Shown: positions 29,340 to 30,850 of the stretch, piece by piece | Position numbering within the stretch: the stretch's first letter is position 1 | Layout of the letters: each line of letters begins with the position of its first letter | Position numbers and translations under genes: made by a program | Virus record (IMG/VR): IMGVR_UViG_3300049491_000841 | Coordinates: 1-55,328 of that record | DNA from: a virus | Taxonomy: Duplodnaviria > Caudoviricetes | Direction: 5' to 3' (one strand) | DNA length: 55,328 bases | Notes under the pieces: generated by a model | Seen by the model: only the letters and a program-made list of their open reading frames with translations | Database searches by the model: none | Told to the model about the DNA's origin: nothing

Positions 29340-29579
29340 ATGAAACCTTACCAACCGAAGGCCGGAGACCAGGCATTGGCCACTCTCGGCCCGGACTACG
29401 CACCCAACGAGCGCGTGAAAGTGACCATCATGGGAGCCGACAAAATCCCAGATGCCTGGGTCTGTCGTGACGACGAAGACCGAACACTGATCGTGCGCAC
29501 CCGGAAACTCTCGGCGCTATCAGTTCCGAGAGCTAAACGTTGTTCTTTGAGCGGTGTTCTCTTGCCGTGCAACCGATAA
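29340..29579 (+). CDS. Hypothetical protein whose 3' end runs into RNA cassette 1
   Basis: MKPYQPKAGDQ... SH3-like beta pattern. Confidence 0.45.
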   Translation: MKPYQPKAGDQALATLGPDYAPNERVKVTIMGADKIPDAWVCRDDEDRTLIVRTRKLSALSVPRAKRCSLSGVLLPCNR

Positions 29580-29692
29580 CAAGGGGCACGGGGAAAGGCA
29601 GTGAAGGTTGGTATGCAATGCTGGGACGCTGGCAATAAGCGCAACCAAATGAAGTAACTGCGAAATCAAGGGGACACCGCTCAGAGAATAGC
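29539..29692 (+). ncRNA. Stem-enclosed RNA cassette 1
   Basis: 26-bp closing stem 29539-29564/29667-29692 with 5 G-U pairs; inner helices CCGTGC/GCACGG, GCAGT/ACTGC, GGTTG/CAACC. Confidence 0.7.
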
Positions 29693-29699
29693 CACAAAA

Positions 29700-29830
29700 A
29701 CGTTGTTATTTGAGTGCTGCCGTCCGGTACAATGCTAGCGTTGGTTCCTTATTGCCATCGCTCTTGCAAAGTGAGAATCCGGTTTACCTGATGATACAGG
29801 ACTCAGGCGGCAGCACTCAAAGAATAGCGT
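29700..29830 (+). ncRNA. Stem-enclosed RNA cassette 2
   Basis: 25-bp closing stem 29700-29724/29806-29830 with one mismatch. Confidence 0.7.
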
Positions 29831-29870
29831 GAATAAAATCGGCCTTGGCCATTTACGAATGAAACGCTAA

Positions 29871-30001
29871 ACGTTGTTCTTTGAATCGGGCGCAGGCAAT
29901 CGCATGCTGTGTGCTGGTAGGAGCAATCCCTGATTGATGCGAAGTTCCACAGGGGCACTCTAGCGCCAGCACACAAATGCGCCCGACTCAGAGAACAGCG
30001 T
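29871..30001 (+). ncRNA. Stem-enclosed RNA cassette 3
   Basis: 24-bp closing stem with one A-C mismatch; inner TGTGTGCTGG/CCAGCACACA and CCCTG/CAGGG helices. Confidence 0.7.
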
Positions 30002-30245
30002 GAAGAAAATCATCCCTATGACCCGACGAATCGAATCAGATGCTATCGCTCCACACAAGAAACTGCTCGGTCGAAGTCTGCCTTCTACGAAGTATGGTGC
30101 TTGGATTGTGGATCGAGTTAGCGACCAAGTTTCCGGGAGATCGCGACTCGTAACGGAGAATTTGAAGGGCGAACAATGGCTCTGGACAGAAACTCTGATC
30201 TCGATGTTTGAGGTTGTTGATAGTGACGGTGCAGTTGGCTCTTGA
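30000..30245 (+). CDS. Hypothetical protein starting at the GTG in the 3' arm of cassette 3
   Basis: 81-aa ORF filling the gap between RNA elements. Confidence 0.45.
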   Translation: MKKIIPMTRRIESDAIAPHKKLLGRSLPSTKYGAWIVDRVSDQVSGRSRLVTENLKGEQWLWTETLISMFEVVDSDGAVGS

Positions 30246-30276
30246 CAAAAATCGCGCTGTGTGAGAGAAAAGAATT

Positions 30277-30412
30277 GTTGGTGCCAGTGTGAAAACTGGT
30301 TTAAGGTTAAGCGACTTTATATGAGCTTCCTGCTCAGGACGATGCCCGACTCTGGGCCATCGGGCTTCACCTTAAAGCTTTTTCACCCTGAGCAGGATTT
30401 TCCTTTACCAAC
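30277..30412 (+). ncRNA. Structured regulatory RNA with internal bipartite antisense pairing
   Basis: Perfect 11-bp stem 30328-30338/30387-30397; its loop 30369-30386 is complementary to 30289-30307. Confidence 0.5.
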
Positions 30413-30485
30413 CTCGTGGCCTCCTTCCGCTAATGCTGCGGCAACGGGGCTTAAAACGGCTGGCGCGGTAAACCAAGCCAGCTAA

Positions 30486-30637
30486 ACGTTGTTCTTTGAA
30501 TCGGGGGATGGTGGAACTTGAGAATAGACACGGGGAGTCGCGCTCCCTGAGTTAAAATAGGCATAGGGCTGTTGAAGCTGAAGCTGAAATTACTCGTGCA
30601 GGTGCGAAGCCTGCTCCCCCGACTCAGAGAACAACGT
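30486..30637 (+). ncRNA. Stem-enclosed RNA cassette 4 containing a tRNA-Leu-like mimic (30502-30622)
   Basis: 23-bp closing stem; cloverleaf CGGGGGA/TCCCCCG-A, D arm GTG-GAA...AGA-CAC, GGGAG/CTCCC with 5-nt loop, long variable arm, GCAGG-TGCGAAG-CCTGC. Confidence 0.7.
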
Positions 30638-30850
30638 GAAGAAAAGCGGCCCTGGCTCTTTTTGCATCATGGGCGCGCGACGGTCGGAGCGCGGGCGAGT
30701 TGTCCCTGCCGGTTCTCAATGGTGAGGTTTCCGAAGAGGCTCCGAACAAACTGCGATGACTACCGATTGTCCGAAAAGACCTGACTTTAGCAGCCGAACT
30801 CAGCAATGGGTTCGGTCTGCCCCAAGCCCGGAACCGAAAGACTCAACATT

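Follow-up and report, generated by a model that had tools for sequence, protein, structure and literature searches.

The nut sites of phage lambda are boxA-type signals that a phage carries and that act on nascent RNA, ahead of long operons and terminator-like hairpins. Correia/nemis-type miniature inverted-repeat transposable elements (MITEs), which are 100-155 bp long with inverted ends, give long RNA hairpins associated with RNase III when they are co-transcribed, and these families have homologous interiors, both orientations and target duplications. In ribosomal RNA (rRNA) operons, an antitermination complex is assembled on the boxA of the nascent pre-rRNA and a leader-trailer helix forms around the 16S rRNA and is cut, as described in PMC10250234 and PMC8708148, the sources of the analogy drawn below. 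The polycistronic transcript of phage T7 contains conserved double-stranded RNase III sites (R1.1 and others) repeated along its length (PMC8708148). Phages have also been reported to carry viral single-guide RNAs (vsgRNAs) for type II-A and II-C CRISPR systems, and the RNA named tracr-L is described there as a CRISPR RNA (crRNA)-like arm, a 126-nt loop and an anti-repeat (10.64898/2026.06.01.729453). Here, we analyzed a phage genome of 55,328 bases (the whole IMG/VR virus record IMGVR_UViG_3300049491_000841, hereafter the window) and describe in it an array of four + strand elements, in each of which two pairing arms enclose a variable interior. We rate the array as a case in which a phage putatively reuses a boxA and a processing stalk of the rRNA type to build small-RNA cassettes, a layout that we have not found described.

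The elements resemble an rRNA operon leader in their 5′ boxA, in a long helix made from flanks that are synthesized far apart in time, in the polycistronic non-coding transcript, and in the core word, which is the same as in Planctomycetota leaders and spacers. They differ from it by enclosing a variable 75-105 nt, by holding the boxA inside the helix, by occurring as four units in a phage, and by the absence of an identified boxB or boxC. As with lambda nut sites, a phage-borne signal stands ahead of a long operon and terminator-like hairpins; in contrast to them, no N-type protein or boxB hairpin was recognised, and a dedicated complementary strand subsequently sequesters the boxA of each element. 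The T7 sites are likewise conserved, double-stranded and repeated, but they are hairpins of about 50 nt between genes, whereas three of the elements stand in tandem without genes between them. The size and the RNA hairpins recall the Correia/nemis families, whose homologous interiors, double orientation and target duplications were not seen in the elements. With tracr-L, vsgRNAs and rAcrIIA1, the elements share a repeat-like 5′ arm, an intervening loop, a pairing 3′ arm and a phage origin; unlike tracr-L and vsgRNAs they have no tail of the trans-activating CRISPR RNA (tracrRNA) type, no bulge and no evident guide, and they resemble a CRISPR repeat over no more than 12-14 nt, which in turn belong to a boxA.

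Closing stem and interiors of the four elements

The four elements were located where an earlier note on this DNA had placed them (Table 1). They open with AAACGTTGTT(C/A)TTTGA and close with TCA(G/A)AGAA(C/T)A(G/A)C, and the 5′ word AACGTTGTTCTTTGA is found on the + strand three times exactly and once with one mismatch. When up to three mismatches were allowed, AACGTTGTTCTTTGA gave nine matches against 2.2 expected (0 of 100 shuffles reached nine), and the further matches within the array region are 3′ arms read from the - strand. The two ends pair in all four elements as had been claimed, over 26, 28, 24 and 23 positions in elements 1 to 4, respectively, so the measured range is 23-28 rather than 23-26 bp. 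Folding of the whole elements on the + strand gave -61.8, -58.8, -72.3 and -63.9 kcal/mol (z -5.6 to -8.8, equalled by 0 of 200 shuffles), while the - strand folds were weaker by 7-16 kcal/mol in all four cases and four control stretches flanking the array gave z values of only -0.2 to +1.1.

For the analysis of covariation, the four elements were combined with two metagenome members (L094 and L095, described below), the stems of which are 18-26 bp long. The closing stems of the six members comprise 122 Watson-Crick pairs, 18 G-U pairs, three A-C pairs and two other pairs, and two of the three A-C pairs represent a single position common to the closely related elements 3 and 4. In an alignment of the helix (A2, 26 pairs), 12 of 26 pairs were changed on both sides and 89% of the cells were paired, compared with 40-53% when the 3′ partner was slid by 1-3 columns, and neither the observed pairing nor the observed covariation was attained in any of 500 shuffles. 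In L094 and L095 the search pattern dictated the outer 12 pairs; it left the inner stem and the outer flank free, and it is there that the compensated pairs are located. Covariation is thus present against both the slid and the shuffled controls, and the observation that the inner stem varies in sequence while remaining paired was borne out. The excess of G-U over A-C pairs, the weaker - strand and the compensatory changes likewise agree with the proposal that selection acts at the level of RNA. Selection acts on the single-stranded fold of the + strand, and since all members are co-oriented with their neighbouring genes, RNA is the obvious candidate. The two arms are not equally constrained: among the four copies in the window, a single change is seen in the 5′ arm compared with four in the 3′ arm, the latter all being transitions that trade a Watson-Crick pair for G-U. 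A 5′ arm that is firmer than the 3′ arm fits a sequence-specific job for the former and pairing alone for the latter.

The interiors are unrelated to each other, as had been noticed: the best pairwise local alignments scored 12-19, except for one 13-mer common to element 3 and L094. That each interior is independently folded held in part, for when interiors 1 to 4 were folded alone (z -3.2, -1.5, -2.7 and -1.2), two clearly beat their shuffles and the other two did not. Contigs of four soil and root runs (X4-X7) were compared with the array region, only parts of which they cover. A 328-nt contig of soil run X6 (record 6) matches 30418-30500 and 30623-30746 with four and three differences, respectively, and between these segments carries 99 different letters instead of the 122 at 30501-30622. 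The replaced block, which belongs to element 4, coincides exactly with what lies between the two halves of the standard stem, and the loose upstream end of the contig reads like the 3′ arm of another element. Elements 3 and 4 of the window, moreover, are identical over 25 of 25 nt at their 5′ borders and over 89% of 36 nt at their 3′ borders, with unrelated interiors. The X6 replacement and the borders of elements 3 and 4 together show that interiors are exchanged and do not merely drift, so that the earlier description of the cargo as interchangeable applies. The best reading is that the outer 12-16 bp are a standard part, with the inner stem and the interior free to differ and swapped between phages. 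Loop-loop contacts between cargoes were also considered and rejected, because the duplex energies were no better than those of shuffles despite a perfect 10-nt complement between elements 1 and 2. A search for antisense targets of the cargoes in the phage genome returned chance-level matches only.

The boxA word and a proposed mechanism

The near-invariant 5′ strand of the elements contains GTTCTTTGA. Planctomycetota were chosen for comparison because a small Cys-rich protein of the window has a homologue on a Pirellulaceae metagenome-assembled genome (MAG) contig (44% identity). In five single-contig Planctomycetota genomes the 16S genes were located, and 600 nt upstream and 500 nt downstream were read. 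GTTCTTTGA was found in sense orientation in the 16S leader or the 16S-23S spacer of four of the five: G094 and G119 carry the exact word at -210 from 16S, followed by CAAAA, and G056 (+303) and G156 (+450) carry it in the 16S-23S spacer downstream of the tRNAs, at the site expected for a second boxA. In all five genomes a word of the form G[ACT]TCTTT[GT]A stands 114-210 nt upstream of 16S, always in sense and never in antisense. The presence of GTTCTTTGA in sense in rRNA leaders and spacers points to a genuine rRNA boxA, and the resemblance to boxA that had been noted extends to identity of the word. Judged by this identity, we take the near-invariant word of the 5′ arm to be a bona fide rRNA-type boxA core. 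On the window + strand the exact word is confined to the array, where it occurs three times. It fits 9 of 11 positions of the boxA consensus GYTCTTTAANA (PMC5725501), which is gamma-proteobacterial; a boxA of Legionella is given as GTTCTTTAAAA (PMC7862264). All four elements are co-oriented with the flanking + strand open reading frames (ORFs), and L094 and L095 stand in operon leaders.

The 12-mer was also searched in 151 Planctomycetota genomes. Single matches occurred in 52, about as many as with the reversed control, and none of 18 single-12-mer loci adjoins a known RNA. Word pairs 336 nt apart in G094 and G119 were discarded as coding repeats. In genome G136, six contig ends (L164, L165, L166, L169, L182 and L183) have about 55 nt in common, ending in CTGTTGTTCTTTGAG(ATT); this is the border of a multicopy element that holds the same word as L094.

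The elements are best read as non-coding RNA units of the + strand, co-transcribed with neighbouring small genes and resembling miniature rRNA processing units. More specifically, we propose that they are rRNA-style units in which boxA would load Nus factors before a long RNase III-type helix closes around a variable RNA, a tentative reading to which we give a probability of roughly 45%. The boxA word GUUCUUUGA, while still single-stranded on the nascent RNA, would recruit the host NusB-S10 (Nus) complex to RNA polymerase. The recruited complex would shield both a highly structured, largely untranslated stretch of about 1.1 kb and the + strand genes that follow it against termination, whether Rho-dependent or weakly intrinsic. 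The interior would be made first; the 3′ strand would then emerge and pair with the boxA strand into a leader-trailer helix of 23-28 bp. An RNase III-type enzyme would cut this helix, and the unit would leave the polycistronic RNA with its interior closed by its own inner stem. The stems of the window and of L094 and L095 span the two or so helical turns, or more, of an RNase III helix, RNase III substrates are described as enclosing loops of four to thousands of nucleotides (PMC8708148), and no RNase III is encoded in the phage genome. A role of boxA in long non-coding arrays has been described for CRISPR arrays, upstream of which it is placed (PMC7862264, citing Stringer et al.). The model would explain the presence of about 1.1 kb of largely untranslated sequence inside a + strand operon that continues into structural genes, as well as the leader position of the single elements in L094 and L095.

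Several points weigh against this model. In the finished fold boxA is fully base-paired, and in the rRNA leaders of G156 and G056, the two genomes in which long-range duplex folding of leaders and trailers was informative (and only near 16S), boxA lies just upstream of the leader-trailer helix and not within it. The first nine nucleotides of the rRNA word are kept and the next CAA is not. Element 2 has the variant core GTTATTTGA (29705-29713), with C changed to A at position 4; in E. coli suhB, function was lost when this position and position 6 were both mutated (PMC5725501). The boxA of element 1 lies within the probable translated ORF 29301-29579. The link to Planctomycetota consists of one 67-aa protein family, for which the other matches are to Proteobacteria, and the 9-mer match could be convergent. 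The family is found in three independent genomes only, and L094 and L095 were found by a pattern that fixes the outer stem. Because two of the four interiors folded no better than shuffles, the case for a functional cargo is weak. A further extension of the model appears rather doubtful: the array would be a natural plug-and-play scaffold for small RNAs, in which the rRNA boxA and leader-trailer helix are shrunk to a standard stem of 12-16 bp and any RNA could be expressed, protected from Rho, folded and excised. Its interiors would be swapped at the stem borders, and its fast-evolving cargoes might include decoys against host defences.

Relatives and alternative readings

Relatives of the elements are rare. 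The two-sided pattern (gap 100-130 nt) gave no match in IMG/VR and none in 185,579 species genomes (one genome per species), and of the 85 single matches to the 15-mer alone in IMG/VR, none has the 3′ word within 300 nt. Seven metagenome loci matched the two-sided pattern. Three of them are convincing members and represent two distinct sequences, L092 (identical to L094) and L095, so that members are carried by three independent genomes. L091, L096 and L093 were rejected since they lie inside ORFs of 2150, 1673 and 196 aa, respectively, and L097 is AT-rich and appears eukaryotic; loci L098-L100, obtained with gaps of 69-99 and 131-161 nt, do not resemble members. A covariance model (R1) was run over 57 sources (709,539 bases), and only its six training sequences exceeded 90 bits, among them element 1 with 111 bits. 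The next scores came from the reverse strands of the members (17-40 bits), L097 (30 bits) and L091 (19.5 bits). The L094 element follows a terminator-like hairpin and stands between a - strand gene for an immunoglobulin-like (Ig) domain protein and a + strand run of small genes. Between this element and the first ORF, two copies of CCAAGAGAACAGAG (1975-1988 and 2020-2033) look like 3′ arms. The L095 element is situated downstream of a site that we read as promoter-like and of a hairpin, and upstream of a long non-coding stretch. No comparable repeat array was present in the related complete phage G010.

The source of L094 is a distantly related phage that shares with the window a family of small Cys-rich proteins. 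These proteins (MNTC.TC..W at the N-terminus and TGPKFGC.HH.PK at the C-terminus) carry no family annotation and are encoded at 53523-53723 (+) in the window and by two tandem copies, 2893-3093 and 3093-3305, in L094. The family also occurs at 20 IMG/VR loci and four bacterial genome loci, with the Pirellulaceae MAG contig as the best genome match, and the element motif is absent from these twenty IMG/VR records and four genomes.

Against Rfam 15 at gathering thresholds, none of the metagenome loci gave a match and in the window only a tRNA at 17786-17853 passed (- strand, 51 bits); ARAGORN reported zero tRNAs across the whole window. At E values up to 10, the array region returned three chance-level matches only, so that none of the elements matches an Rfam family. 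Keyword searches of the literature yielded no account of this layout or of the 12-mer, and the papers that do contain the 12-mer are unrelated. The earlier statement that no described family has this layout agrees with these searches, but it needs qualifying, since tracr-L and vsgRNAs, whose defining tail the elements lack, also combine a repeat-like 5′ arm and a large loop with a pairing 3′ arm.

The elements might instead be plain processing or stabiliser hairpins, or a small-RNA platform, without a role of Nus factors; they would then be RNase III-type sites in a polycistronic early transcript, as in T7, serving to separate and protect RNAs, and the boxA-like word would be incidental to the preference of a nuclease or a double-stranded RNA binder. 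Helices of this length, the pairing of boxA in the final fold and the retention of the helix in element 2 despite its broken core all suit this explanation, as do the conserved boxes that are described as being read by RNase III in T7 R1.1-type sites (PMC8708148). We nevertheless consider it unlikely, as the three tandem units, 5 and 35 nt apart, have no gene to separate, the 5′ arm is under tighter constraint than its partner, and the exact sense boxA word is restricted to the array on the window + strand. A second explanation, that the elements are MITEs, invertible segments or recombination cassettes acting as DNA, with terminal inverted repeats read by a transposase or recombinase, and that the RNA fold is a by-product, seems improbable. 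The several copies with terminal inverted repeats, the different contexts of the members (window, L094 and L095), the other member at the same site in the X6 relative and the six G136 contig ends with a common multicopy border holding the word would be expected of such elements. However, mismatches are biased by strand (18 G-U against three A-C), the inner stems are compensatory and different in each copy, the interiors are unrelated rather than homologous, and six of six members are co-oriented with their flanking genes rather than inserted in either orientation. None of the four elements shows a target-site duplication, replacement of 122 interior letters by 99 is not an inversion, and the complete genome has no reverse transcriptase and no tyrosine (PF00589) or serine (PF00239) recombinase, for which a host enzyme might stand in. 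Very improbable, in our view, is a role as cis-regulatory switches, in which the helix would hide a GTG after the 3′ arm, or would insulate or terminate, and so control the downstream small ORFs. As previously noticed, the 3′ word is followed by GTGAA at elements 2, 3 and 4; the full tail is GTGAA(G/T)AAAA, its first two bases sit in the helix, and an ORF start is possible at 30000 or 30018. By our reading, though, the GTG frames that follow elements 2 and 4 are short (13 and about 28 codons), the tail is missing from element 1, and such long perfect helices would not open. Known classes of phage or mobile RNA were also compared: no RVT_1 match for a retron and no Ro60/TROVE domain for a bacterial Y RNA were found in the genome, nor did the latter match in Rfam. 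The lack of a reverse transcriptase, a TROVE domain and a tyrosine or serine recombinase speaks, respectively, against a retron RNA, a Y RNA system carried by the phage, and inversion or cassette recombination by enzymes of the phage itself. Motifs resembling attC, dif and hammerhead were judged only by eye against a consensus and were dropped.

A resemblance to CRISPR RNA raises the question whether the elements are Cas9 decoys, whose closing stem would mimic the lower stem of type II-C crRNA repeat and tracrRNA anti-repeat and whose array would sequester Cas9 or RNase III in the manner of vsgRNAs. The search of the 151 Planctomycetota genomes had revealed 22 copies of the 12-mer at 66-nt spacing in G053, and these are the repeats of a type II-C CRISPR array beside cas9 (615 bits, TIGR01865) and cas1. 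When the 36-nt repeat is read in crRNA orientation, its nucleotides 4-15 are GTTGTTCTTTGA; for L094 the match extends to 14 nt, and the interior of an element sits where tracr-L has its large intervening loop. Yet the G053 repeat holds GTTCTTTGACAA, which agrees in 12 of 12 positions with the rRNA-leader boxA of G094 and G119, so that the repeat itself harbours a boxA, which accounts for the 12-nt identity. Such an array was found in one of 401 genomes. A tracrRNA tail is absent, the tails of elements 2, 3 and 4 folding at z -1.5, -0.3 and +1.0 and element 1 being tailless, so membership among the viral single-guide RNAs fails. The stem of the elements has no bulge, whereas G053's own duplex pairs over this stretch by 5 + 4 bp with loops; the guide position is taken by a shared GCTAAAC; none of the 22 G053 spacers matches the window at E <=0.1; and no Acr or Aca (anti-CRISPR or associated) family was found nearby. 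Judged by eye, about 10 of 19 positions of the 3′ arm agree with the tracrRNA of G053. Neither did a solitary-repeat RNA anti-CRISPR apply, since 12-14 of 36 nt are in common and not the whole repeat. Taken together, a decoy role is hardly probable. In G053 itself, boxA (GTTCTTTGACAA) is present inside every one of the 22 repeats, which could make that array Rho-resistant.

Genome setting and biological meaning

The coordinates of the array and of the features compared with it are collected in Table 1.

Table 1. Coordinates of the elements, of features between and behind them, and of the CRISPR array in G053
Feature	Position	Strand	Details
Element 1	29535-29697	+	Arms 29539-29564 / 29667-29692; 26 bp, 5 G-U; boxA-like core 29542-29550
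Element 2	29698-29833	+	Arms 29700-29727 / 29803-29830; 28 positions, 4 G-U, 2 mismatches
Tail of element 2	29829-29858	+	GTGAATAAAA, then small GGC..GCC hairpin between A run and U run
Element 3	29869-30004	+	Arms 29871-29894 / 29978-30001; 24 positions, one A-C; boxA-like core 29876-29884
Probable small ORF between elements 3 and 4	30018-30245	+	Best-scoring frame (+0.09); without family match
Fifth structured stretch, lacking the common stem	30285-30400	+	z -3.9; inside nominal ORF 30261-30485
Element 4	30484-30640	+	Arms 30486-30508 / 30615-30637; 23 positions, one A-C; boxA-like core 30491-30499
Tail of element 4	30636-30666	+	GTGAAGAAAA, then similar small hairpin and TTTTT
G053 CRISPR array	G053:C23:11696-13093 (locus L161)		cas9 at L171 6670-10284

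The probable ORF at the upstream end of the array extends 45 nt into element 1, and element 2 begins 5 nt beyond element 1. With a probable small ORF separating element 3 from element 4, coding sequence breaks up the array. The stop of the nominal ORF around the fifth structured stretch is the TAA that opens element 4. This stretch is matched by two contigs of soil run X6 (14-18 differences, with indels), and no clear compensatory pattern was seen in the difference table, which the indels blur. The tails of elements 2 and 4 fall in one repeat family (D2). The hairpin in the tail of element 2 looks like a weak terminator, its fold (z -1.5) not being significant, and the hairpin in the tail of element 4 was not called by a terminator scan.

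The window has direct terminal repeats and is estimated to be complete. Most of its proteins have no family match in Pfam or PHROGs, and around the array the annotation is uninformative; a weak match to the large terminase subunit, an Erf-like annealing protein, an exonuclease and an HNH_3 endonuclease were recognised. The last of these, a 390-aa HNH protein, was considered as a phage-encoded RNA-guided nuclease and rejected because HNH_3 is a homing type. The ORFs from 30.8 to 55 kb are almost all on the + strand, among them one for a 1374-aa protein (34461-38585) that combines a bacterial Ig domain with several BACON domains and that probably serves in the tail or in receptor binding. The neighbouring proteins encoded at 33326-34261 and 31085-31477 have no relatives in IMG/VR, and blastn of the array region against the INPHARED phages gave no match and thus no similar cultured phage. 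Three gene starts (31913-31964, 32122-32173 and 33021-33072) have AAACTGAAGGAGA, a spacer and a start codon in common, and such a conserved initiation region of the Shine-Dalgarno type argues against a host without such sites. An origin of replication was considered and dropped, as there was no skew signal.

If the proposed rRNA-style reading of the array is correct, boxA antitermination combined with leader-trailer processing would not be limited to rRNA, beyond which boxA serves CRISPR leaders and a few mRNAs. The array would then represent a portable viral module for the expression of arrays of unrelated small RNAs, and a new class of phage non-coding RNA genes to be sought in viral dark matter. 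It would also offer a way to understand how phage transcripts with long untranslated stretches evade Rho, and a natural scaffold on which structured RNAs may be expressed in bacteria. The replacement of the cargo in the soil relative suggests that these RNAs evolve in a cassette-like manner.

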